Positions 700 through 54,550 are shown, counted from the first letter of the stretch. The stretch is DNA of 64,000 nucleotides from a virus (IMGVR_UViG_3300032241_000811:1-64000), one strand, 5' to 3'. Numbers and translations are program-made. Notes: generated from the sequence alone by a model not told the origin.

Positions 700-789
700 A
701 ATGATATTTACCTTTCTATTGTTGTCAACGATGTTATAATCTTAGTGGAAGCAGCCATAAAAGTCAAGTGACATATTGACGCAGGCTAA

Positions 790-3161: not shown

Positions 3162-3726
3162 ATGACTATTTATACTATATACAAACTCACCAACAAAGTC
3201 AATAATAAATCATACATAGGCTTCACAAAAAGATGGCCTCAAAGAATAAAAGAACATTCTTGGGCTTGCACTAATATGCTTATTCACAAAGCCATTAGAA
3301 AATATGGAATGGATTCTTTTGAAAGTAGCATTCTTTATCAGGGGGAAGATAAAGATTTTACTCTGTCTATTATGGAGCCTCATTATATAAAAATGTATAA
3401 TACTTTGATAGAAGGATATAATCAAACTTCTGGTGGAGAAGGAACATCTGTCCAGAAATCTATAGAGCATAAAAGAAAGATTGGTCTGGCTCACATCGGT
3501 ATGAAAAGATCCAAACAAACCTGTGCGAACATTAGCAAAGCTAAAATAGGTAAAAAAAATGTCTATTGAAGCTAGGAAAAATATGTCTGACGGTCATAAA
3601 GGTCTCAAACAAAGTAAGGATACTATTGAAAAACGCGCCTCAAGGCATCGAGGCAAAAAAAGAAGTGAAGAAACACGACAAAAAATGCGTGATGCCAAGT
3701 GTCCTAGAATCCTAGAACTCCTGTGA
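3162..3726 (+). pseudogene. GIY-YIG homing endonuclease with NUMOD3 repeats, frameshifted
   Basis: YTIY..TN..N.KSYIG motif; the A8 run at 3552-3559 breaks the frame, and A7 restores further NUMOD3 repeats to a stop at 3726. Confidence 0.75.
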
Positions 3727-13253: not shown

Positions 13254-13658
13254 TTATAGTTTGAGGTGAGACCTATGGACACGGCAGCGAACCTGCTCAT
13301 TGTACCAATCATCTGGTTTTTCCAGAACAGCGCGAAGCATCTGTTCCTTGGCTTCAAGATAGTTTGCTGTGCCTTTTGATTTGCAGAGATATAGGATTTC
13401 CCGTTTGAAGTTCTCAGCACCAAGCTTGACTACATCTTCTTTCAGTTCATTATTGGAACCATAGTATGTGCGCCAATCGGATTCCGATCTGATTTTCTTT
13501 TTGCGGGTTTTGCCTTTGACAACTTTAGAACGTGTTTTTTGAAAAATCTTCTTGCCAATATATTGCTTATTGGTCTTTAGGTTTGTTATCAGATAGACAA
13601 AGGCTACATTGTCGCCTATCTGATCATCAGTCAACTCTTTGCCGTTATACAGCCACAT
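13254..13658 (-). CDS. GIY-YIG family endonuclease (conserved T4-like, MWLY N-terminus)
   Basis: FVYLITN..T.KQYIGKK, ESDW.TYYGS, FKREIL. Confidence 0.85.
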   Translation of the reverse strand: MWLYNGKELTDDQIGDNVAFVYLITNLKTNKQYIGKKIFQKTRSKVVKGKTRKKKIRSESDWRTYYGSNNELKEDVVKLGAENFKREILYLCKSKGTANYLEAKEQMLRAVLEKPDDWYNEQVRCRVHRSHLKL

Positions 13659-29507: not shown

Positions 29508-30780
29508 TTATTTGCTCCAGTTCTTGGTAGCATTGAAGTTAGCCTGAGAAAACTCAAGTCTGTCAATCAGCTTCACAGCATTACCAATATGATCTATAGC
29601 AACGAAGCCTTCTGGTGCAGTAGCCACATAGCCTCTATCATCTGTTTTTAGATATGATGATAATGAGTCTTGCACTGTTTGCAGCTTTTTGACAATGATC
29701 AGTTTAGCACGAACCAATAGGTTTTGCAAGTCAAAAATGTTCTTCAGTTCATTCTTGTTAGATTTATAGAAAGACAACACCATATTCTTTTCCGCAGTTC
29801 TTTTGCGCTTGGTATCTTCCTTCTTTGCGTCAAGAATATCCTTATTCATCTTTCTTTCTATTTCATCAATCAGCCCGGAAACATGAGCAGAGGTATTTGT
29901 AATCTCTTTACCTTCTCGGACCTTGAGATTATTCCAAGCCTTGATTTGAACTTTGTATGTTTCATTGTTGGCAATCATATTCAGAGTTCTGGGTGAGATA
30001 CGTCTGAATAGCGCACCTGCCTCTGACAAAATGGCATTGAGTTCTTTTGTTTCTTCCAGTGTCAGGTTTGCTATACCAGAAGCATCAACATATTCTGCAT
30101 CTCTGAACCACACATATTTTGATGGGTTCAATGTTGCTGCTGAAAATCCAAATGATGCTTTCATAGTAGCCAACTCATCACCATCATATGATGTGTGCCA
30201 TACAATGCCGAGTTTAGCTTCTGACATTTTCTTGGCCAGCTTTGAATCAGCAGGAACAGCATATGTGATTGTGTTTGGTGTAAAGACAAGATACTTGGCA
30301 CCATCAATCGTTTCTGTTTTCAGATCACTATTGATGAACATCATATCACCTTGAATGACGCCTTTGATGTTCAACTCAGGCAGATAGCGCAATGCAATCT
30401 TCAGCTTTTCATTCAGCCCAGCACCTGGATGATTATTATCAATGTCTTCTGGTGTGTAATTCAGCTTTGCTCCCTTTGCAAACACACCCTTGGTACCGAC
30501 AAAGAACTTGCCATTTTCTGGATTGATGCCTGCAAATACTGCTGGCGCACCATCAAACTTTGTTGTGACCTTGATAGGAGCCTTTGTATGCCCACTAAGC
30601 ATATCTCTCAGTGATTGCAGAAAGTTGATTGCTCCACGAGTGCCATTGACTCCGCCGTTCAGCACCTCATCTTCAAGGTGTTCATTCAAGGTGAAGGTTT
30701 TTGCCTTCCTTGTCTTCTTTCAACAAGAAAGAACCTTCACCCGAAAGGTCTCCTCTATTATATTGTTTGTAACTTAGCAT
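29508..30780 (-). pseudogene. ATP-dependent ligase-like (KxDG) protein, frameshifted near the N-terminus
   Basis: TTKFDGAPA, QGDMMF, EGFVA, VKLIDRLEFS; natural start MLSYKQY at 30780 is cut off by a TGAA duplication at 30681-30688. Confidence 0.65.
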
Positions 30781-31418
30781 TTTTCTATTTTCAATCCATA
30801 TCTTTTAGAATGATTTCCGTTTTTATACAGAGACTTCATAGTGGAATAGTTATATTTATACTCATCACAAAAGTCTTTTATACACTCAAATCTAACTGTA
30901 TTACCATTATCAAATACGACCTTTATTGTTTTTGCATTTGGATTATTTGCACCTTTTACTGGGGTTTTTCTGCCCCAGTTACGATTTATACTCTTTGATC
31001 CTATTTTCTTTTTTGTTTCTTCTGTGTGCTTTTTGCCATACATGGGATTTTTTGAACCAGAAATATCCGGTCTATTCCAATTTCTCATGTGCTTTCTTTC
31101 TTCTAGTGTGTACATTGACCAATAATCTTTTATGCTTTTAGAACACCCTCCGAAACCACCATAAGAAATGTTATAATAATCCTTAGATTCAACTGCTTGT
31201 AGTTTGTCGATCCATTTTTTTTCAGCCTCACACATATATTTGAATGTAGGACAATCTTCTAAAGTTACTCGTGTAAAGCTATCTTTACCATACTTTTTTA
31301 TTGCTTGTTTCAAAAGTTTTCCGGATCCTATGTATTCTTTTTCGTGCGTGTATTTGCACATACCAACATATTTTTTGCCATTTTTGTTGTTTGTCGTCAA
31401 GTATATAAATCCATACAT
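30774..31418 (-). CDS. Seg-like GIY-YIG homing endonuclease
   Basis: YGFIYLTTN..NGKKYVG, YIGSG, NPMYGKKHTEETKKK; TATAAATA hairpin upstream. Confidence 0.88.
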   Translation of the reverse strand: MYGFIYLTTNNKNGKKYVGMCKYTHEKEYIGSGKLLKQAIKKYGKDSFTRVTLEDCPTFKYMCEAEKKWIDKLQAVESKDYYNISYGGFGGCSKSIKDYWSMYTLEERKHMRNWNRPDISGSKNPMYGKKHTEETKKKIGSKSINRNWGRKTPVKGANNPNAKTIKVVFDNGNTVRFECIKDFCDEYKYNYSTMKSLYKNGNHSKRYGLKIEKC

Positions 31419-32783: not shown

Positions 32784-33233
32784 TTACTTATCTTCTCCTA
32801 ATGTTGCTTTAAGCATCCAGCCGTGCTTGGCATGAATGTCCATTCTATCCTGCAAAAAGTTTGCTAGTCCATCTTCTTTTGCTTCGTTTGCTAGTATATA
32901 GGCTTCTTTGAGACTTGTCAAGACAATTTTGTTTGCATCCAATATATTTCTGACCATATCATCTGATACTGGAATGAGTTCATCTTCATCCACATCTGAC
33001 AACTCAATCATTCGTGCTATTGTTCCAGGTGCAAAGCCATCTATTGCTCTGATATGTTCTGCGATTGGGTCTACTGCGCCCCATAGTTCCTCATAGAACT
33101 TTTCAAAGAAACTGTGGAGTTGTGGAAAGTCTGAACCAATAACATTCCAGTGATAGCCATGTGTTTTCATATACATCACGAAAGTATTGGCTAGAACCTT
33201 CTTCATCGCATCTTGTAGTTTTTCGTTATCCAT
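32784..33233 (-). CDS. dps: Dps ferritin-like protein
   Basis: KTHGYHWNV.G.DF.QLH.FFE..YEE, D.IAE.IR, H.K..WML. Confidence 0.9.
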   Translation of the reverse strand: MDNEKLQDAMKKVLANTFVMYMKTHGYHWNVIGSDFPQLHSFFEKFYEELWGAVDPIAEHIRAIDGFAPGTIARMIELSDVDEDELIPVSDDMVRNILDANKIVLTSLKEAYILANEAKEDGLANFLQDRMDIHAKHGWMLKATLGEDK

Positions 33234-33274
33234 GTATGATATAAGCCTCCGTTGCAAGAGTATTTATAACACGA

Positions 33275-33512: not shown

Positions 33513-33604
33513 TGGCGGAATGTACTGGATTTGAACCAGTGGTACCTTTTTAGGGGTACGGCGGTTTAGCAAACCGCTGGAATAAGCCTCTCTCCCAACA
33601 TTCC
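33513..33604 (-). tRNA. tRNA-Ser(GCT)
   Basis: cloverleaf with long V arm and CCA. Confidence 0.9.
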
Positions 33605-33608
33605 ATTA

Positions 33609-34010
33609 TTATTCAAGATAAGGTATTCATTCTTCGGCGAAAGAGCAGTTCTTAGCCCCCTTGAATAGGGGTGCAATCTGTTCGTCTTTATATCCAGCCA
33701 ATCCACAACCGACACGTGTCACAAACCATTGTGTGTTTTGGTGTGATGTGATTTGGGTATACAGACAAAAGATTTCAATTGATCTAGCTATCGTTTGTAA
33801 ATCAAGTGTTTCTATACTTTGGTTTTTGGTAGCTATAGCATAACTATTTCCACAAAGACCTTGACCAGTTCCTCATACTGCACCAAACTTTTGGAGTGCC
33901 ACTTTAGCAGCGCCAGCACCATGAATGCCAGCTAGATTGCTTCCGAATACAAACACCTCCCCGTTTTGGGGAAGTGTTCCATCTCTATGGAATGTATATA
34001 GGTATGTCAT
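33609..34010 (-). pseudogene. macrodomain-like phage protein (FVFGSN..G.HG.GAA family) with two in-frame TGA
   Basis: 134-codon frame read manually; TGA at 33873-33875 and 33627-33629. Confidence 0.75.
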
Positions 34011-34012
34011 AT

Positions 34013-34525
34013 CTAAGCTACCTTCAGCTTACGATCTTTCTTTTGTGTCATTTGCATGATAGCATCCTTGTAGCGGTCTGCACAATAACTTGCACACCAT
34101 GCGTCTGGCTTGACCATAGGAATAACATTGCACATACCGCGAATGTATCCAACAGCTTCATTGATAACACATGAAGAACCTTCCTTGAGGTCTGGGTTGA
34201 TGTCAAGATGAATCTCAACCTCGCGCTCACCGATGATGTCAACAAGCTTCAAGTATAGTTCTGCTGTCTTCATCACCTCAGTCATCAGGCGCAAACGCGG
34301 GCGATCCTTCTGCTGGTCATAGTCACGCTCACGAGTGATTTCACCAAACACACGGCAGCCGTTCTTGCCATTTATATGGACAACAACGACATTGATGTAG
34401 TCAGCATACCAAACACCATCCATCTGGAAACGCTCGGAGTCGCCACCGATGTATACCTTTGTGTCCAGCGATTGGGTGTTTAGAAATGCTGTGAGTTCGT
34501 CTAAATCTAACTTTTTGCGTAACAT
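34013..34525 (-). CDS. RNase H-like YkuK (DUF458) family protein
   Basis: VYIG.DS, RLM.EV, EIHLDIN, KP.AW.AS..AD. Confidence 0.8.
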   Translation of the reverse strand: MLRKKLDLDELTAFLNTQSLDTKVYIGGDSERFQMDGVWYADYINVVVVHINGKNGCRVFGEITRERDYDQQKDRPRLRLMTEVMKTAELYLKLVDIIGEREVEIHLDINPDLKEGSSCVINEAVGYIRGMCNVIPMVKPDAWCASYCADRYKDAIMQMTQKKDRKLKVA

Positions 34526-34535
34526 GATTTTATCC

Positions 34536-34958
34536 TTAGTTTAGTTTCAGTTCTATCCTCTGTCTGAGTTCTGTGGAACTGAAACCATGGCGGCGTTTAT
34601 TGAAATAGTAATCCATATTCAGATCACTACCGGTGAAATCTTTTCCTTTGTATTCTTCACCTAGTATTCTAACATCTATTGGTAGGGTTGTCAACAGATC
34701 ATAGAGTTCCTTTTCCGTGTTATAGACAACAATCTCATCCATAAATTTGCAAGCACGGACCTGCAAAACCCTTTCTACGATTGATTGAATGGGTTTGTTC
34801 TTTTGTGGGCGATCAATGGTTGGATCAATCTGAATACCGACTATGAGCCAATCACATTGTCTTTTTGCTTCTTCAAGCATAGTCACATGACCTGTATGAA
34901 ATAAATCAAAAGCACTGCAAGTAAATCCGATTCGTTTATGTTCCATATTATACTCCAA
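34536..34958 (-). CDS. TagD-like glycerol-3-phosphate cytidylyltransferase
   Basis: AFDLFHTGH, ER, R.HGFSSTELR. Confidence 0.85.
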   Translation of the reverse strand: MEYNMEHKRIGFTCSAFDLFHTGHVTMLEEAKRQCDWLIVGIQIDPTIDRPQKNKPIQSIVERVLQVRACKFMDEIVVYNTEKELYDLLTTLPIDVRILGEEYKGKDFTGSDLNMDYYFNKRRHGFSSTELRQRIELKLN

Positions 34959-34961
34959 AAG

Positions 34962-35035
34962 TGGTGCACAGAAGTAGAATCAAACTACTGTCTCCGCGTT
35001 ACGAGGGCGGCGTTATATTACTTAACTATTCGGGC
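34962..35035 (-). tRNA. tRNA-Thr(CGT), imperfect acceptor stem
   Basis: anticodon loop CTCGTAA; CCA; two acceptor-stem mismatches. Confidence 0.65.
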
Positions 35036-35715
35036 ATTCTTTTATGTGTTCCAAATCTTTTTCTATCTGGAAAATGGCTGGTCAAAAACATTATTAAGGG
35101 TTTAGGGTTATTCCAACCATATTCTTTAGAAAGTAATTTTGCGTTTTCACCTGATTCATATCTCTCTAAAATTGAAGATTTGTAATTTATGCGCCTTTTA
35201 CGTAGCAGTTCTTTTTCAGTTTCAATTTTTATTTTTTGAGGGTATTTCATCGACAAAGTTTTAGATATTTTCAGTTTTGTCTCGGTTGATCTAGGAATTA
35301 CTTTATTCCATGCTAATCTTGGCTTTTTTATCTTGACTTTTTGACTCTTGAGTAAACCTTTTTCTCTTAGATTTTCTCTAAGTTTTGTTCCTCCCAGTTT
35401 ACCTCTACGCTGTCTTTCTTCTTTTGTTATCGACTGATTGATGAAACCGAATCCACCGGGCCCTCCTGGACATATATTGTAGTTTGTTTCTTTATCAGGT
35501 ACAACTAAAATCTTCTCCAAAAGATTCATGTGTTTCTCATCTTTACAGTGATGAAGAATCTCTCTATGAAAGTTCTCTATTCCATGTTTCTTTATGGAAT
35601 GATTTAGTCTCTTACCTGAGCCAAAATAACCATCGTTTAGATCATTGGTTTTATGTTTGCCGATGTAATATTTTACATTCAGTAGATTGGACGTTTTATA
35701 GATGATATAGTGCAT
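35026..35715 (-). CDS. Seg-like GIY-YIG homing endonuclease
   Basis: YIIYKT.N..N.KYYIGKH, DGYFGSG, YNI..GG; stop overlaps tRNA-Thr(CGT). Confidence 0.88.
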   Translation of the reverse strand: MHYIIYKTSNLLNVKYYIGKHKTNDLNDGYFGSGKRLNHSIKKHGIENFHREILHHCKDEKHMNLLEKILVVPDKETNYNICPGGPGGFGFINQSITKEERQRRGKLGGTKLRENLREKGLLKSQKVKIKKPRLAWNKVIPRSTETKLKISKTLSMKYPQKIKIETEKELLRKRRINYKSSILERYESGENAKLLSKEYGWNNPKPLIMFLTSHFPDRKRFGTHKRMPE

Positions 35716-35775
35716 TTTGGAAGGCTCCAGAAAATAAACCCATATAGGTTATTTATACTTCTGGAGCCTTCGATG
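35716..35775 (-). mobile_element. tRNA 3'-end cassette leader, copy A (late promoter in hairpin)
   Basis: CATC-gaaggctccagaa-gTATAAATAACCTATATGGG-ttctggagccttc. Confidence 0.75.
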
Positions 35776-35846
35776 TGCTCCCAACAGGTACCGACCCTGT
35801 GTCTCAGCTTTACCAAAGCTGTGTACTACCTTTGTACTATGGGAGC
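35776..35846 (-). tRNA. tRNA-Thr(GGT), no encoded CCA
   Basis: GCTCCCA/TGGGAGC stem; loop TTGGTAA. Confidence 0.8.
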
Positions 35847-35985
35847 GGGCTGATTAAATCTTTCCTTGAAACCATGTTTATTTTTTCTTCCGTTAAGAGA
35901 CGCTGATATTTTTTATTGATTTCTTCTTGATTTCTCATTTGAACCTCCACACACATTTTATACTATTTATATGTGTGTGGAGGTT
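35837..35985 (-). pseudogene. late-promoter hairpin with a short endonuclease-like remnant
   Basis: aacctccacacacat..TATAAATA..atgtgtgtggaggtt, then MRNQEEINKK(ISASLNGRK in a shifted frame). Confidence 0.45.
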
Positions 35986-35990
35986 TATAG

Positions 35991-36068
35991 TGGTGCGTTT
36001 GGAGGGATTCGAACCCATCACTGTACAGCTTCTAAGACTGTTGACTCCTACCGTTGGTCTACAAACGC
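35991..36068 (-). tRNA. tRNA-Leu(TAG), short variable loop
   Basis: loop CTTAGAA; CCA. Confidence 0.8.
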
Positions 36069-36097
36069 ATGTGTCTCTACCGTTGGACTACGGGCCC
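36069..36097 (-). pseudogene. 5' tRNA fragment (acceptor 5' strand and D arm)
   Basis: GGGCCCG TA GTCC AACGGTA GAGAC, then truncated. Confidence 0.6.
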
Positions 36098-36103
36098 ATA
36101 AAC

Positions 36104-36178
36104 TGGTTGTCGATGATGGAATCGAACCATCGGACTTCCCCATGTCAAGGGGACGTTGTACCATTCAACTAATCGACA
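36104..36178 (-). tRNA. tRNA-Val(GAC)
   Basis: loop TTGACAT; CCA. Confidence 0.85.
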
Positions 36179-36179
36179 A

Positions 36180-36255
36180 TGGTAGTCCGAGAGGGATTCG
36201 AACCCCCGACATTCTGCATGTAAAGCAGACGCAGCTACCACTGTGCTACCGGACT
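36180..36255 (-). tRNA. tRNA-Val(TAC)
   Basis: loop TTTACAT; CCA. Confidence 0.9.
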
Positions 36256-36261
36256 ATATTC

Positions 36262-36336
36262 TGGAGCGGGCAACGGGAATCGAACCCGTGACTCAACCTT
36301 GGCAAGGTCATATGTTACCTCTAGAACCATGCCCGC
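36262..36336 (-). tRNA. tRNA-Gly(GCC)
   Basis: GCG start; loop TTGCCAA; TCCA. Confidence 0.9.
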
Positions 36337-36343
36337 AATAATT

Positions 36344-36419
36344 TGGTACCTCCGCCAAGTTTCGAACTGGGTTATCGCCCTTATGAGGAGCGCACGATGT
36401 ACAACACCGTCCCGGAGGT
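36344..36419 (-). tRNA. tRNA(CAT) Met/Ile2, atypical D arm
   Basis: loop CTCATAA; CCA; lacks U8 and the D-loop GG. Confidence 0.65.
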
Positions 36420-36425
36420 ATATAG

Positions 36426-36500
36426 TGGTGCCTCAGAACGGAATTGAACCGCTGACACCATGCTCTTCAGGCAGACGCTCTACCACTGAACTACCGAGGC
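36426..36500 (-). tRNA. tRNA-Phe(GAA)
   Basis: loop CTGAAGA; CCA. Confidence 0.85.
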
Positions 36501-36507
36501 ATTATTT

Positions 36508-36582
36508 TGGAGCGAGTGGCCGGAATCGAACCGGTCCTCTACAGCTTGGAAGGCTGGGGCACCACCAATATACCACACTCGC
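36508..36582 (-). tRNA. tRNA-Gly(TCC)
   Basis: loop CTTCCAA; TCCA. Confidence 0.9.
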
Positions 36583-36590
36583 TTTATCTC

Positions 36591-36743
36591 TTATTCGTTT
36601 AGAAGCTGCTTTGTGCTTTCCTGTAGTTGCTGCTTGTTATGTTCGTCTAGTTTAGCAACATACTGTTCATTTGTCAAGCCATGCCAGCCAACGCAAAAAC
36701 CTGTTGGTGAACGACCGCAACCACATTTCTTTTTATCTGTCAT
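36591..36743 (-). CDS. CDGSH-type iron-sulfur mini-protein
   Basis: CGCGRS..GFC.GWH. Confidence 0.65.
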   Translation of the reverse strand: MTDKKKCGCGRSPTGFCVGWHGLTNEQYVAKLDEHNKQQLQESTKQLLNE

Positions 36744-36760
36744 TTTCTTTTCCTTATAGA

Positions 36761-36855
36761 TGGCGGAAGAGGTAGGATTTGAACCCACGGAACCCGATGT
36801 TAGCGGGTTCTCCGGTTTTCAAGACCGGTGCAATCAGCCACTCTGCCACTCTTCC
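36761..36855 (-). tRNA. tRNA-Ser(TGA)
   Basis: loop CTTGAAA; long V arm; GCCA. Confidence 0.9.
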
Positions 36856-36864
36856 TTATATATG

Positions 36865-37272
36865 TTAGTTTTTGATGATGGTTGCTTCAATCCGACAAAC
36901 GCCAGAACCAATGCAACCCAATAATACTGCGACATGTCTTGATAGGTCGATGTCTCTTCCCTTTACATAGGGGCCGCGATCATTTACGCGAACGATAACT
37001 GTCTTGCTGTTATGTTTCAATCTCAGTTTTGTTCCAAGTGGTAAAGTCTTGTGAGCAACCGTCAATGCGTTTGGGTTGAACTTTTCTCCGCTTGCGGTAA
37101 TCTTACTTCTGCTGCATTCACCTCTGTGTGCGCAGTCATACCATGATGCTCTCATATTGCTTGCTTGAGAGTCTTGTGTTGTTGTAAATATAATACTACA
37201 TATTACAAGAGTCTTTTGGATAATGCTTTTCGTTTTTATCAATATAGATACTCCTCTTTTTATGAGCATCAT
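36865..37272 (-). CDS. RlpA-like DPBB lytic transglycosylase
   Basis: ASWY, TASGE, AHKTLPLGT, VRVNDRGPY, IDLS. Confidence 0.88.
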   Translation of the reverse strand: MMLIKRGVSILIKTKSIIQKTLVICSIIFTTTQDSQASNMRASWYDCAHRGECSRSKITASGEKFNPNALTVAHKTLPLGTKLRLKHNSKTVIVRVNDRGPYVKGRDIDLSRHVAVLLGCIGSGVCRIEATIIKN

Positions 37273-37336
37273 TTTCTTCTTCCGAAAAAAACAATGTAGT
37301 TCTATTTATGGCATGACCAAACCCTTGATTTTTTAA

Positions 37337-37428
37337 TGGCGCGCCAGACAGGATTCGAACCTGCATCGGACATATAATCCACTCCAGTTACCTTTGTTCG
37401 CGTTCGTAGCGCGAGGGGATACTAACGC
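37337..37428 (-). tRNA. tRNA-like RNA, anticodon ACG, no D arm, expanded variable region
   Basis: acceptor GCGTTAG/CTGGCGC; T arm GCAGG TTCGAAT CCTGT; CCA. Confidence 0.65.
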
Positions 37429-37432
37429 ATAT

Positions 37433-37507
37433 TGGAGGAGCAAACAGGAATTGAACCTGTATTGAGGGATTTGCAGTCCCTTGCATCAGCCATTCTGCCA
37501 TTGCTCC
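37433..37507 (-). tRNA. tRNA-Cys(GCA), copy 1
   Basis: loop CTGCAAA; U73; CCA. Confidence 0.9.
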
Positions 37508-37512
37508 GTTAT

Positions 37513-37587
37513 TGGCGACCCAAGTAGGACTCAAACCCACATCTCTTCGCTTTAGAGGCGACTGCATAATCACTCTGCCATTGGGTC
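37513..37587 (-). tRNA. amber suppressor tRNA (CTA)
   Basis: GACCCAA/TTGGGTC stem; loop CTCTAAA; GCCA. Confidence 0.8.
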
Positions 37588-37908
37588 ATAATTCTATTTA
37601 TGGTTGTTAATGATTAACAATTCATTATTTCTATAGCAGATAATATAACGTGAATCTATCCAAGCCATATGTGGATTGTTTTTCACGTGCTCCATAATCT
37701 GATTATATGTTTCAAATTTTGGACCAGGAGCACTAAACTTAGTAAATGCCAGATATTCTTGTTTCATCATCATAACTTTAATAATGCTTTATAGAAAAAA
37801 TCATTATGATACTTGTTGAAATACAGCGTATAATAATATCCAGGTTTAATAGGTTTGTTTTCTGGATATGTAAGCCACACTTCTTCTTGATTCATATTCA
37901 TTACAAAT

Positions 37909-38139
37909 TTAATTCTTGTTATCAGTTACAGTAAAACCAAGTTCAATCAAAAAAACTCTTATCTTATCAGAAACTTCATATTCTTTATTTTGTCTATATA
38001 TATCACGAATAGCATTTAATGCCGACAATAACATTGTTATTTTATGCTTTTGATTTTCTGAATACTTAGACATTATCTGAAGTTCATTCTCTAAACGATA
38101 AATTTCATACTGTAATTCATCTTTTGTTTTGTCAGACAT
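37909..38139 (-). CDS. small protein resembling the CysRS C-terminal anticodon-binding domain
   Basis: IRDIYRQNKEYEVSDKIRVFLIELGFTVTD versus CysS pattern R..AR..KD...AD.IR..L...G..LED. Confidence 0.55.
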   Translation of the reverse strand: MSDKTKDELQYEIYRLENELQIMSKYSENQKHKITMLLSALNAIRDIYRQNKEYEVSDKIRVFLIELGFTVTDNKN

Positions 38140-38156
38140 AACAAATTCCTAAAAAA

Positions 38157-38231
38157 TGGAGGAGCAAACAGGAATTGAACCTGTATTGAGGGATTTGCAG
38201 TCCCTTGCATCAGCCATTCTGCCATTGCTCC
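38157..38231 (-). tRNA. tRNA-Cys(GCA), copy 2
   Basis: identical to 37433-37507. Confidence 0.9.
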
Positions 38232-38239
38232 GTAAACAC

Positions 38240-38313
38240 TGGTGCTCCCACAGGGAATTGAACCCCGAATTGATGATTACAAATCAACTGTTATACCTTT
38301 TAACTATAGGAGC
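38240..38313 (-). tRNA. tRNA-Thr(TGT)
   Basis: loop TTTGTAA; CCA. Confidence 0.88.
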
Positions 38314-38324
38314 ATTTATAAAAT

Positions 38325-38401
38325 TGGCTGCTCGGGTAGGGATCGAACCTACGACATCCTGATTAACAGTCAGGCGCAACTACCGGCTGTGCTACCGAGC
38401 A
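38325..38401 (-). tRNA. tRNA-Asn(GTT)
   Basis: loop CTGTTAA; GCCA. Confidence 0.9.
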
Positions 38402-38461
38402 ATGAATTTCGCTCCGATTTCTTATAGTGGTTACGGCCTCCACTTATTTGCCTATGTTGTT

Positions 38462-38490
38462 ATTCTAGACTATTACACAGGCTAAGTCAA
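38462..38490 (-). promoter_or_regulatory. sigma70 promoter within the tRNA array
   Basis: TTGACT-N17-TAGAAT. Confidence 0.7.
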
Positions 38491-38498
38491 GCCCTATT

Positions 38499-38572
38499 TG
38501 GCTGCCCGTCATGGAATCGAACCACTGTAACAGGTTCCACAAACCTGCGTTCTACCATTGAACTAAAACGGA
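38499..38572 (-). pseudogene. chimeric tRNA: His(GTG) 5' part, Gln-like 3' part
   Basis: loop TTGTGGA, but T stem and acceptor mismatch after GGTTCGATTCCA. Confidence 0.6.
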
Positions 38573-38573
38573 G

Positions 38574-38648
38574 TGGTAGTCCCAGAGGGAATCAAACCCT
38601 CATCTCCGCCTTGAAAGGGCAGCGATCTAATCACTAATCTATGGGACC
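38574..38648 (-). tRNA. tRNA-Glu(TTC)
   Basis: loop CTTTCAA; CCA. Confidence 0.85.
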
Positions 38649-38654
38649 GTTGTT

Positions 38655-38731
38655 TGGATGCGGGAGGAAGATTTGCACTTCCGATCTCCGACTTATGAGG
38701 CCGGTGAGATAGTCTGCTTCTCTATCCCGCA
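38655..38731 (-). tRNA. tRNA-Met(CAT), initiator-like
   Basis: TGCGGGA start; loop CTCATAA; CCA. Confidence 0.8.
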
Positions 38732-38737
38732 ATAATT

Positions 38738-38812
38738 TGGAGGACGCAATGGGATTCGAACCCATGACTTACGGTTTAAAAGACCGCTACTCTACCACTG
38801 AGTTATGCGTCC
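38738..38812 (-). tRNA. tRNA-Lys(TTT)
   Basis: loop CTTTTAA; CCA. Confidence 0.9.
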
Positions 38813-38816
38813 ATAA

Positions 38817-38890
38817 TGGCTGGGAGACAGGGACTCGAACCCCAATATACGGAATCAAAATCCGCAGTCCTACCATTAGACGATCTCCCA
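38817..38890 (-). tRNA. tRNA-Gln(TTG)
   Basis: loop TTTTGAT; GCCA. Confidence 0.9.
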
Positions 38891-38893
38891 ATA

Positions 38894-39271
38894 TTATTGT
38901 GAAAGTCTCTTTGCTTTAGCTTCTGCTGAGACTGACTCAAATAGGTTCATGTTGTCATGGACTCTCTTGACATCTTCTTCTACATTTGGATTGTAGTCTT
39001 TGAAGTTGTCGCCGTGACCGAGCAAGAGATGGCACTCTTTGTCCATGCACAAAGTAATAAGATTTGTTGGTTCAAGTTCTAATTCAGGAAACAAGTGGAA
39101 CGGCTTCTTGTGATGCACATTCAGCTTCTTGTCTGAACCGCAGCAAGCACATACTGGTTGTTCTTTTAGGTGTGCGTGTTCTACTGCTGGCCAATGAGGG
39201 CTGCGCGGCTTTTCAATGCCTGCTGCATCGTCTCTGTTGGCTGCGACTGATAAATCTTTCTTCTGTGTCAT
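38894..39271 (-). CDS. HNH endonuclease
   Basis: CACCG..LNVHH..P...NLITLC...CH...GH; TAAATA hairpin at 39275-39302. Confidence 0.85.
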   Translation of the reverse strand: MTQKKDLSVAANRDDAAGIEKPRSPHWPAVEHAHLKEQPVCACCGSDKKLNVHHKKPFHLFPELELEPTNLITLCMDKECHLLLGHGDNFKDYNPNVEEDVKRVHDNMNLFESVSAEAKAKRLSQ

Positions 39272-39307
39272 ATCAATACTCCTTGGTTGACGGAGTATTT
39301 ATGAAAT

Positions 39308-39352
39308 TGGTACTAGCGGGTGGGATCGAACCACCTACCACACGGTTATCAG
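39308..39352 (-). pseudogene. 3' half of tRNA-Ile(GAT)
   Basis: CTGATAA loop, T arm, ACCA; 5' half absent. Confidence 0.75.
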
Positions 39353-39419
39353 TTTGATGTTTACCTATGTAGAATTTTTGATTTATTTTGTTAGTAATAT
39401 GATAGATAGTGTAGAACAT
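39345..39419 (-). pseudogene. N-terminal fragment of a GIY-YIG endonuclease
   Basis: MFYTIYHITNKINQKFYIGKHQTDN, similar to the start of 35715. Confidence 0.8.
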
Positions 39420-39478
39420 TTAGAGAATCCGATTTGTATAAGCCCATATAGGTTATTTATACAAATCGGATTCTGATG
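39420..39478 (-). mobile_element. tRNA 3'-end cassette leader, copy B
   Basis: CATC-agaatccgatttgTATAAATAACCTATATGGG-tatacaaatcggattct. Confidence 0.75.
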
Positions 39479-39554
39479 TCAGCGTAGATGGATTTGAACC
39501 ATCGGTCTCCTGCTCCCAAGGCAGGCGGATTAAACCATACTTTCCCACACGCTG
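39479..39554 (-). tRNA. tRNA-Pro(TGG), no encoded CCA
   Basis: CAGCGTG/TACGCTG stem; loop CTTGGGA. Confidence 0.85.
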
Positions 39555-39560
39555 TTATTC

Positions 39561-39605
39561 TGGCGACCCATAGCGGTTACGATCCGCTGACACATCTTAG
39601 ACAGA
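39561..39605 (-). pseudogene. 3' half of tRNA-Asp(GTC)
   Basis: CTGTCTA loop, T arm, GCCA; 5' half absent. Confidence 0.7.
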
Positions 39606-39661
39606 GAAGCCTCCGAATACTAAACCCATATAGGTTATTTAGTAAACGGAGGACTTCAATG
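39606..39661 (-). mobile_element. tRNA 3'-end cassette leader, copy C
   Basis: CATT-gaagtcctccg..cTAAATAACCTATATGGG..cggaggcttc. Confidence 0.7.
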
Positions 39662-39750
39662 TAGGCGTGTAGGGACTCGAACCCTAGCGAGAACACCGAT
39701 CTAGTGCTAAAGGGATTATAAGGCCCTCCGGTATACCTATACTCACGCCT
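39662..39750 (-). tRNA. atypical tRNA(TAT) with long variable arm, no encoded CCA
   Basis: AGGCGTG/CACGCCT stem; loop CTTATAA; V-arm hairpin; reduced D arm. Confidence 0.7.
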
Positions 39751-39758
39751 TTATTTGT

Positions 39759-39944
39759 TTACAACACCTTGGCAATCAGCCAGAGAATACCTACAACAAG
39801 AATAATCACAATCAAGATGACGGGAATAGCCCAGAAAGGCGCAAGAACCCACCACCAAGACCAGTCAATATAACCCATAAGCTTCAACACAATGAACACA
39901 ATACCCAATGTGCTGAGAAAACCAGGTCCTACTTGAACGCTCAC
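39759..39944 (-). CDS. small membrane protein
   Basis: IVLKL.G.IDWSWWWVLAP.W motif. Confidence 0.7.
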   Translation of the reverse strand: MSVQVGPGFLSTLGIVFIVLKLMGYIDWSWWWVLAPFWAIPVILIVIILVVGILWLIAKVL

Positions 39945-39983
39945 ATTCTTATCTATGACAATATATCCTTTTCAAAACATTTT

Positions 39984-40059
39984 TGGTAGCCGCTGTGGGA
40001 CTCGAACCCACCCTTGGACGATTTTAAGTCGTCTGTCTCTACCACTGGACTAAGCGGCC
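39984..40059 (-). tRNA. tRNA-Leu(TAA), short variable loop
   Basis: loop CTTAAAA; CCA. Confidence 0.85.
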
Positions 40060-40066
40060 GATATTC

Positions 40067-40143
40067 TGGCGGTCCCGGAGGGATTCGAACCCCCAACTCG
40101 CCGCTTAGAAGGCGGCTGCTCTATCCAGTTGAACTACGGAACC
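40067..40143 (-). tRNA. tRNA-Arg(TCT)
   Basis: loop CTTCTAA; GCCA. Confidence 0.9.
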
Positions 40144-53619: not shown

Positions 53620-54550
53620 TTGTATCTCTGTTGTTCAAATACCAGTCTATTGTCATTCTCAGACCTTGACGCAGATCAACTTTTGGTTTCCATCCAAGAG
53701 CATCCATCTTTGATGTGTCTAATGCTCTGCGTGGTGTGCCATTTGGTTTTGATGTATCCCAAACAATCTGACCTTGATAGCCAAAGATGTCTGCTACAGT
53801 TTCGGCAAGTTCCTTGATCGTCACTTCATGGTTTGGTCCAATGTTGATAGGACCAGGGTCATCATAGTTGTTCATCAAGAAGATGCAAGCATCAGCAAGG
53901 TCATCACTATATAGAAACTCTCTGGTTGGTGTGCCATCTCCAAAACAGGTTATTGTCTGATAGTTATTTTCCTTTGCAGCAATGAAGCGATTGATGAATG
54001 AAGGAATCACATGGCACTTCTCTGGATCAAAGTTATCGTGAATGCCATATAGATTATTTGGCATGACTGAGACTGTCTTGAAGCCATACTGCTCTGTATA
54101 TTTCTGGCACATTGTCAGACCAATGATCTTTGACAGCGCATAGCCTATGTTAGTAGGTTCCATTGGACCTGTGAGCAGGTCTGTTTCCTTGATTGGAACA
54201 GGAGCAAACTTGGGGTAGATGCAAGCTGAACCCAAGAATAATAGCTTCTTGGCTCCTGATACATATGCTGAATCAATCACATTTGTCTGTATAAGCAGAT
54301 TGTCTCTGATGTATTCTGCTGGGTGCTTTTGATTATGCCCAATGCCACCAACCTTTGCTGCTGCTAGAAACACATAGTCAGGCTTCTCTGCTCTGAAAAG
54401 TTCAAATGTTTCTTGCTGATTGCGAAAGTCGCATCTTTGACGCCCAACACCTACGATGTTTGTATAGCCTTGCTGTCTCAGTTGTCGGTCAATAGCAGAA
54501 CCAACAAGACCATTAGCCCCTGCTATCAAAATCTTCTCATTACTGTCCAT
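53603..54550 (-). CDS. fcl: GDP-L-fucose/colitose synthase
   Basis: [35 protein letters not shown]. Confidence 0.92.

Follow-up and report, generated by a model that had tools for sequence, protein, structure and literature searches.

Putative SegB-type endonuclease cassettes at tRNA 3' ends in the tRNA array of an uncultured T4-like phage

The DNA analysed here (the window) is a stretch of 64,000 nucleotides (nt) from the IMG/VR virus record IMGVR_UViG_3300032241_000811, which is 109.6 kb long and has a completeness estimate of 63%. All 24 tRNA genes detected by ARAGORN in the record lie in a single minus-strand array (33513-40143; positions are those of the whole window), with small open reading frames (ORFs) interspersed. 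At three places in this array a tRNA gene or tRNA-like gene without an encoded CCA is followed at once by a hairpin leader, and behind the leaders lie an intact GIY-YIG homing endonuclease gene resembling T4 segB (copy A), the remnant of a second such gene (copy B), or no ORF at all (copy C). These candidate cassettes, for which all checks were made on the minus strand, are the subject of this report (Table 1). By its genes the record is that of an uncultured, distant T4-like myovirus: the gp43-type DNA polymerase has its best cultured-phage matches in cyanomyoviruses (~51% identity), a T4-like RNA ligase is encoded, and two ORFs show weaker, partial matches to cytidyltransferase and polynucleotide kinase families. 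No close cultured-phage relative was found, and megablast of the region against cultured phages returned tRNA fragments only.

Hairpin leaders behind CCA-less tRNA genes

A preliminary description of this DNA named three complete tRNAs without an encoded CCA: Thr-GGT, Pro-TGG and one with anticodon TAT. The first two stand, and CCA is encoded in 22/22 other ARAGORN tRNAs of the array. The TAT gene is sub-threshold as a tRNA (Rfam 25.9 bits against a cut-off of 29); ARAGORN calls it only with an intron allowed and not under standard settings, and a C-U mismatch closes its anticodon stem at the base of the anticodon loop. It is treated here as a tRNA-like gene of uncertain function; long-arm tRNA-Ile(TAT) genes exist in two other T4-like contigs (L172 and L202). 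With this gene counted, CCA is missing from 3/3 cassette-adjacent tRNAs versus 0/22 others (Fisher p = 4e-4). All three genes end as described, in discriminator A followed by CAT(C/T): ...GGGAGC-A-CATC in tRNA-Thr(GGT), ...CGCTG-A-CATC in tRNA-Pro(TGG) and A-CATT in the TAT gene.

Every hairpin begins 4 nt past the discriminator and holds in its apical part an exact copy of the 17-mer TAAATAACCTATATGGG, as had been noticed. The 17-mer occurs three times in the window, always on the minus strand, against a chance expectation of 0.15. A match with three mismatches at 54044, inside an epimerase-like coding gene, is attributed to chance; with it included, the observed count of four was reached in 0/100 shuffles. 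The other 45 kb of the record contain no further copy. No shuffled sequence folds as well as the leaders. Their stems have diverged in sequence, and even the pairing register is not constant, yet all are fully paired, in agreement with the preliminary description. Leaders A and C are 74-78% identical (74% over 57 nt, with the outer stem in common), and the pairs with leader B about 71-73%; leader A belongs to repeat families D3 and D4.

The ORF of copy A begins 4 nt past the leader stem and is free-standing between tRNA-Thr(GGT) and tRNA-Thr(CGT). Its product matches Pfam PF19835 (25.6 bits; cut-off 25) and PHROG 314, 'homing endonuclease' (3e-32), and is 44% identical to T4 SegB over T4 SegB residues 1-96, the catalytic domain (E 1e-21). 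Residues 1-87 are modelled with pLDDT > 90 and match the I-TevI catalytic domain (1mk0) in Foldseek with a probability of 1.0; a sequence search of the PDB found nothing significant. Residues Y6, Y17, G19, E67 and N80 are invariant among 36 relatives of copy A, and inactivating mutations of T6 SegB hit residues Y17 and G19 (PMC13096335). These matches bear out the earlier call of an intact GIY-YIG gene, which the leader is predicted to drive. Because only residues 1-96 align and a SegB-like C-terminus is absent, we regard the protein as a SegB-like relative and not as an ortholog.

At its 3' end the copy A ORF overlaps tRNA-Thr(CGT) by 10 nt (35026-35035), and its TAG stop codon consists of tRNA nucleotides U8-A9-G10. 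A 10-nt overlap of a segB-like ORF with the next tRNA recurs in viral loci L130, L169, L170 and L197 and in Acinetobacter phage AM101 (L209). Since tRNA nucleotides 8-10 are nearly universal, the ORFs in these loci probably borrow their stop codon in the same way.

The 25 codons that follow leader B are 52% identical to the N-terminus of copy A and nearer to T4 SegB and to the protein of a metagenome contig, L083. They are fused in frame to a 5'-truncated tRNA, of which 39308-39338 is a member of the tRNA 3'-end repeat family D1. No ORF follows leader C, and a second 5'-truncated tRNA lies between this leader and tRNA-Pro(TGG). The paralogous N-terminus and the lost ORF had been recognised before; the truncated tRNAs after both orphan copies had not. 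Since the ORF is reduced or lost and truncated tRNA 3' parts follow, we interpret copies B and C as deletion remnants, and the truncated tRNAs fit the recombination-prone behaviour reported for SegB loci. Recombination at a GGTTC that the SegB G-S-G codons have in common with the T-arm was considered as the source of the copy B deletion and rejected: to the left of GGTTC the DNA is tRNA-like, not segB-like. The three copies are not recent duplicates, given the differing stems, the 52% identity of the A and B N-termini and upstream tRNAs of different species.

Directly behind the truncated tRNA that ends copy B lies an HNH endonuclease gene. Its region (38894-39303) carries a CATAAATA of its own and a small hairpin (ATACTCC...GGAGTAT) over the Shine-Dalgarno sequence, and tRNA-Gln begins 3 nt past its stop codon. 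It represents a second kind of homing endonuclease and may have overwritten the greater part of the copy B segB.

The core had been reported to contain a T4 late-promoter box. This is correct for copies A and B: TATAAATA is complete at the top of both hairpins, and the 3' arm holds GGAG or GGA 8-9 nt ahead of the ATG (GGAG at 9 nt in leader A). Leader C has the degraded form ACTAAATA. There are 15 occurrences of TATAAATA on the coding strand, most of them 15-30 nt ahead of a Shine-Dalgarno sequence and ATG, and none on the opposite strand; a homolog of the late sigma factor gp55 is encoded at genome position 79786-80262 (E 2e-16). Judged by sequence, copies A and B thus have the parts of the late-promoter hairpin device known from T4: the box within a hairpin, a Shine-Dalgarno sequence in its 3' arm, and gp55. 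A fourth hairpin with a late promoter is built alike but has another loop; it lies 7 nt past the CCA of tRNA-Leu(TAG), which keeps its CCA, and behind it an ORF of 33 codons extends into the 5' end of tRNA-Thr(GGT).

Table 1. Features of the three candidate cassettes and other elements in the window, in order of position
Feature	Position	Strand	Evidence and remarks
GIY-YIG gene or fragment	3162-3569	+	
GIY-YIG gene or fragment	13254-13658	-	
GIY-YIG gene	30774-31418	-	GIY-YIG and NUMOD3 matches
Ferritin/Dps-like gene	32784-33257	-	
tRNA-Thr(CGT)	34962-35035	-	ARAGORN; Rfam 44.1 bits; two acceptor-stem mismatches; CCA encoded
SegB-like GIY-YIG homing endonuclease gene, intact (copy A)	35026-35715	-	229 aa; Pfam, PHROG, T4 SegB alignment, structure model
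Leader A	35716-35775	-	CATC, then hairpin 35720-35771; TATAAATA and core 35739-35755 at top; -28.6 kcal/mol, z -8.0
tRNA-Thr(GGT)	35776-35846	-	ARAGORN; Rfam 59.4 bits; discriminator A at 35776; no encoded CCA
Fourth late-promoter hairpin	35937-35990	-	-24.1 kcal/mol, z -7.0
DPBB lytic-transglycosylase-like gene	36865-37272	-	
tRNA-like sequence	37340-37428	-	Weak; long variable arm; 27.6 bits, below the Rfam cut-off; CCA at end
tRNA-Cys(GCA)	37433-37509	-	77 nt
CTA-anticodon tRNA	37513-37587	-	Rfam 52 bits; CCA encoded
tRNA-Cys(GCA), exact duplicate	38157-38233	-	77 nt
HNH endonuclease gene	38894-39271	-	125 aa
5'-truncated tRNA	39308-39342	-	T-arm, acceptor 3' strand, CCA; fused in frame to copy B codons
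Second SegB-like gene, remnant (copy B)	39345-39419	-	25 codons (MFYTIYHITNKINQKFYIGKHQTDN); tblastn E 0.003
Leader B	39420-39478	-	CATC, then 18-bp hairpin 39424-39474; TATAAATA and core 39443-39459; -25.7 kcal/mol, z -8.0
tRNA-Pro(TGG)	39479-39554	-	ARAGORN; Rfam 59.6 bits; discriminator A at end; no encoded CCA
5'-truncated tRNA	39561-39590	-	T-arm-like stem-loop, acceptor 3' strand, CCA
Leader C	39606-39661	-	CATT, then hairpin with core 39625-39641; GGAGG in 3' arm; -26.7 kcal/mol, z -6.6
tRNA-like gene, anticodon TAT	39662-39750	-	Long variable arm; no CCA; A-CATT; function uncertain

Cassette junctions in other viral loci

We surveyed 79 other viral loci from an IMG/VR profile search, picked for SegB-like N-termini regardless of tRNAs. 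In most of them the SegB relative is a free-standing gene between tRNA genes, with a tRNA 55-70 nt upstream of the segB start. Junctions were counted over distinct tRNAs with a good acceptor stem, and those at most 95 nt upstream of segB were scored as adjacent. CCA was missing from 41/47 tRNAs directly upstream of segB versus 15/276 others in the same loci (p 8e-33). The junction N73-CAT was present in 29 of the 47 adjacent tRNAs (CATA 18, CATT 6, CATC 4, CATG 1), and these 29 belong to 15 isotypes. The upstream acceptor stems are no more damaged than those of other tRNAs, with 7/7 pairs in 41/47. Leaders in the survey are hairpins with an invariant ATAAATA, and the 21 that were aligned show compensatory double changes at all 10 consensus stem pairs. 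Other phages, too, have orphan leaders (L133 and L150).

Two loci provide direct evidence, at the level of alignment, that leader and segB form a unit that occupies non-allelic tRNA ends. In L128 the unit lies behind tRNA-Glu(TTC) and in L130 behind tRNA-Trp(CCA); the leaders are 97% identical and the SegB N-termini 83%, the tRNAs on both sides are unrelated, and homology extends from exactly C74 to the segB 3' end. Together with the junction counts, this alignment argues for the earlier proposal of an element that repeatedly targets tRNA 3' ends.

An exact search of metagenomes with the 17-mer returned 65 matches, of which that in L083 alone is genuine. There the hairpin lies behind tRNA-Ser(TGA), reading G-CATT, and ahead of a SegB ortholog, so this one other true instance of the leader is also at a tRNA end; the concern that it might occur mostly elsewhere was not borne out. 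The Ser-TGA gene of the window, in contrast, has its CCA and no cassette. The SegB ortholog of L083 has an apparent ATT start (771-773, minus strand), 6 nt past GGGAG, and several segB genes in the survey start with TTG, ATT or ATA in place of ATG. In IMG/VR the exact 17-mer gave 14 matches, all of them chance occurrences in coding sequence (mostly one gene family) with neither hairpin nor tRNA. Among the metagenome matches, a hairpin-like one in L045 proved to be a stop codon and GC-rich terminator in unrelated DNA. When the four core-bearing leaders were aligned, MAFFT/RNAalifold misaligned the stems and recovered the apical pairs alone, so we rely on single-sequence folds.

Cassette-free relatives of the three genes might also have lacked CCA, a possibility raised in the preliminary description. 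We found the opposite: cassette-free Pro-TGG, Thr-GGT (3 copies) and Ile-TAT genes carry CCA in every case, across all loci. Empty sites ending in ACCA, the search for which had been proposed, are represented by two viral tRNA-Pro genes (one TGG, one CGG) whose 22-nt 3' end is identical to that of the Pro-TGG gene of the window. They are not strict alleles, because no close relative of the phage was found. No IMG/VR sequence matches the exact 3' end of Thr-GGT, and a search with the neighbouring cytidylyltransferase gene gave 27 loci, almost none near a tRNA array and hence no allelic empty sites. Among cultured phages, T4 has a tRNA-Ile without CCA, a 41-nt hairpin leader, segB, and tRNA-Arg 5 nt past the stop codon; in AM101 the order is tRNA-Ser, a TATAAATA hairpin, a seg gene and tRNA-Trp, into which the seg gene extends.

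Spread and control of the cassettes

We consider it very likely that each of these elements is a cassette built around a free-standing GIY-YIG homing endonuclease gene of the SegB type, and that such cassettes have spread to tRNA ends and carry a switch-controlled leader. Each cassette would consist of a leader of ~60 nt and an endonuclease ORF inserted between two tRNA genes; it would start right past the upstream discriminator, with CAT(C/T) in place of CCA, and extend as far as the 5' end of the following tRNA or into it. Of the three, copy A is intact, and copies B and C would be what deletions have left. If the enzyme behaves as the SegB proteins of T4 and T6 do, it would find tRNA genes by their conserved T-arm and cleave them at the CCA end; recombinational repair would then copy the cassette into the broken site. 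Insertion at different tRNAs would be possible because the target motif is common to tRNA genes. Occupied sites, being without CCA, would have lost part of the target and may thereby be immune. The upstream tRNA would presumably remain usable, its end being completed by the host CCA-adding enzyme, as happens with CCA-less T4 tRNAs. We infer cleavage specificity, immunity through CCA loss and CCA repair by analogy; the presence and absence of cassettes at tRNA ends among phages fits cutting and homing at the T-arm/CCA site.

The published properties of SegB account for much of this arrangement. T4 SegB recognises a 27-bp site that includes the T-arm motif GGTTCRANTCC and makes cuts with 2-nt 3' overhangs in at least 10 tRNA genes of T2L and T4, in most cases just past CCAR; where CCAR is missing the cut shifts (PMC2330249). 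The preliminary description, which set the three copies against a T4 segB homing to a single site, used a baseline that is out of date. SegB homologs show significant co-localisation with tRNAs, across all isotypes and with no isotype preference, and T6 SegB drives amplification that yields tandem repeats of tRNA and C-terminally truncated segB (PMC13096335). Shared with T4 and T6 SegB are the GIY-YIG domain, the place between tRNA genes behind a CCA-less tRNA and the hairpin that covers the ribosome-binding site (RBS), in a family known for T-arm recognition, CCA-end cutting, tRNAs of all isotypes and truncated copies formed by recombination. The window differs in the C-terminal half of copy A, in the junction (N73-CAT(Y) here, A-TATTTT in T4 segB), in the full TATAAATA box at the hairpin top and in having three cassettes in different states of decay in a single array; its phage is only distantly related to T4. 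The pattern can be expected from an enzyme family whose cleavage of tRNA genes at this place was already known, and is not a new kind of system. Multi-tRNA targeting, tRNA association and the hairpin have been published; new here are the junction rule in quantified form and the demonstration that placement is non-allelic.

The term transposable cassette, used in the preliminary description, suits the behaviour of the element but not its structure. Transposase or integrase, terminal repeats and target-site duplications are all absent; the GIY-YIG endonuclease is the only gene of the cassette, the left junction replaces CCA with no duplication, and the right end, where the cassette touches or enters the next tRNA, does not repeat the left end.

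The T4 tRNAs for Pro, Ser and Ile have no encoded CCA and are matured by a host nuclease and the CCA-adding enzyme; the T4 sequence confirms the lack of CCA for tRNA-Ser and tRNA-Ile. The cassette-adjacent tRNA genes resemble these in lacking CCA and, by analogy, would share their dependence on host CCA addition. They differ in that CCA loss in the window and survey is tied specifically to a SegB cassette. A phage CCA-adding enzyme (PF01743) was not found in the 109.6 kb, which at ~63% completeness does not imply that the phage is without one.

The leader probably acts as a T4-style expression switch. Combinations of late promoter and hairpin are known for I-TevI, I-TevII, I-TevIII, T4 segB and Aeh1 mobE, and the same late-promoter/RBS-sequestering control operates at T4 genes e and soc (PMC2988022). 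In these systems early read-through transcripts fold so that the RBS is hidden, whereas late transcripts, whose start point is inside the hairpin, are translated (PMC2988022; PMC2330249); the RBS of T4 segB is occluded by such a hairpin (PMC2330249). In the window, read-through transcripts of the array would likewise bury the Shine-Dalgarno sequence in the hairpin and yield no early endonuclease. Late in infection, gp55-directed transcription would start at TATAAATA at the hairpin top, and the transcripts, lacking the 5' arm, could be translated. Promoter use and translational masking are predicted here from the known cases, with which the leaders share a late promoter placed so that late transcripts lose the 5' arm of the hairpin that buries the Shine-Dalgarno sequence. 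Here the device is predicted from sequence, the leader begins right at a tRNA 3' end, and the loop has 9-11 additional invariant nt. Another parallel is offered by PeSLs (PMC2839356; PMC4122927), promoter-stem-loop cassettes by which modules are shuffled in T4-type genomes; they, too, are short conserved units of promoter and stem-loop, repeated at gene boundaries in variable T4-like regions. As described, PeSLs are early-promoter/terminator motifs between ORFs and are not known to be linked to endonuclease genes or tRNA ends.

Several observations weigh against the reading as SegB-type cassettes. The C-terminal half of copy A has no detectable similarity to the DNA-binding region of T4 SegB and is modelled at low confidence; the protein has neither a NUMOD3 match nor the ...GWFxGRKMKF end, and a SegB-like C-terminal end is common to T4 SegB and the L083 protein. 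The target specificity of copy A is putative for this reason. By the published data T4 SegB cuts the top strand (after CCAR) 3-4 nt downstream of the N73/C74 junction, and this cut site alone does not explain so exact a boundary: either this lineage cuts slightly differently, or selection that keeps the tRNA and destroys the target filters the insertions. Copy C has no complete late-promoter box. Finally, the 9-11 nt of the core past the promoter box (ACCTATATGGG) are identical in four cassettes with diverged stems and proteins, and the promoter/hairpin model leaves this invariance unaccounted for; the same nucleotides were not found at the other late promoters of this genome. We considered an I-TevI-style operator in the conserved loop and dropped it, given that the C-terminal domains of copy A and L083 differ and the loop is unlike a T-arm.

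The orphan hairpins B and C could instead have been kept for the benefit of the array, for example as late promoters for the downstream tRNAs and HNH gene or as 3'-processing signals for the CCA-less tRNA. The perfect 17-nt core in both orphans despite loss of the ORF, together with stems that still pair, would fit such a role, and T4 endonuclease genes are known to carry promoters that their neighbours need (PMC2988022). However, the box of copy C reads ACTAAATA, the core is equally conserved in the intact cassettes A and L083, so that its conservation needs no new function, a one-step deletion can leave a leader intact for long, and orphan leaders occur in other phages as well. We regard a retained function as unlikely, though not far-fetched.

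A second alternative concerns how the cassette joins its site. Because the boundary is exactly N73/C74 at 15 or more isotypes with unrelated flanks on both sides, the SegB lineage might spread by a homology-independent join at its own staggered cut, a transposition-like 'ectopic homing' in which CCA loss would be both scar and immunity mark; the additional invariant nucleotides of the loop would then belong to the machinery or control of that step. Ordinary homology-driven homing followed by selection is an alternative explanation of the same boundary, and we judge the ectopic join improbable.

The copies could also have arisen within the genome by SegB-driven segmental duplication followed by decay (an 'accordion', as in T6) and not by three insertions. 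T6 SegB makes repeats of this kind (PMC13096335), leaders A and C share an outer stem, and the array contains an exact duplicate of tRNA-Cys(GCA), 724 nt apart from the first copy, that may be the footprint of a segmental duplication. An old duplication is possible behind the pair A and C, to judge from their leaders. For the set as a whole it is improbable: the upstream tRNAs are three different species, the leader stems differ at many positions, the B N-terminus is more like T4 SegB and L083 than like copy A, and near-identical cassettes behind different tRNAs elsewhere indicate that relocation occurs. That the repeated core is an assembly artefact or chance repeat, as the metagenomic origin of the record might suggest, has next to no likelihood in view of the shuffles, the paired stems and unique flanks of each copy and the same architecture in dozens of independent contigs and in T4; since the copies share only 17-25 nt, collapse or duplication by the assembler is also unlikely.

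For the place of SegB-type cassettes the window and the survey together yield a sequence rule: the cassette starts at tRNA position 74 with loss of CCA, the acceptor stem of the tRNA upstream is preserved, and U8-A9-G10 of the following tRNA often serves as stop codon. A phage tRNA gene without CCA would flag a cassette or remnant and may aid annotation. The rule matters in that tRNA arrays of large phages are increasingly viewed as counter-defence loci, and SegB was recently shown to remodel them (PMC13096335). It also yields testable ideas: that CCA loss protects an occupied site from the cassette's own enzyme, that the enzyme is able to invade any tRNA gene, and that cassette-adjacent phage tRNAs depend on the host CCA-adding enzyme.

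Further features of the array and the record

Between the two tRNA-Cys(GCA) genes lie the CTA-anticodon tRNA and three small ORFs. The former would read amber codons (ARAGORN labels it Pyl), and similar CTA tRNAs are present in L085 and L186. The nearby tRNA-like sequence is possibly another decayed tRNA. A DPBB lytic-transglycosylase-like gene was identified inside the array and a ferritin/Dps-like gene just beyond it.

The phage is heavily loaded with homing endonucleases. Distant from the tRNAs, the window contains three more GIY-YIG genes or fragments, the one at 30774-31418 having TATAAATA 17 nt ahead of its start, and another is located at genome position 103163-103690 on the minus strand.

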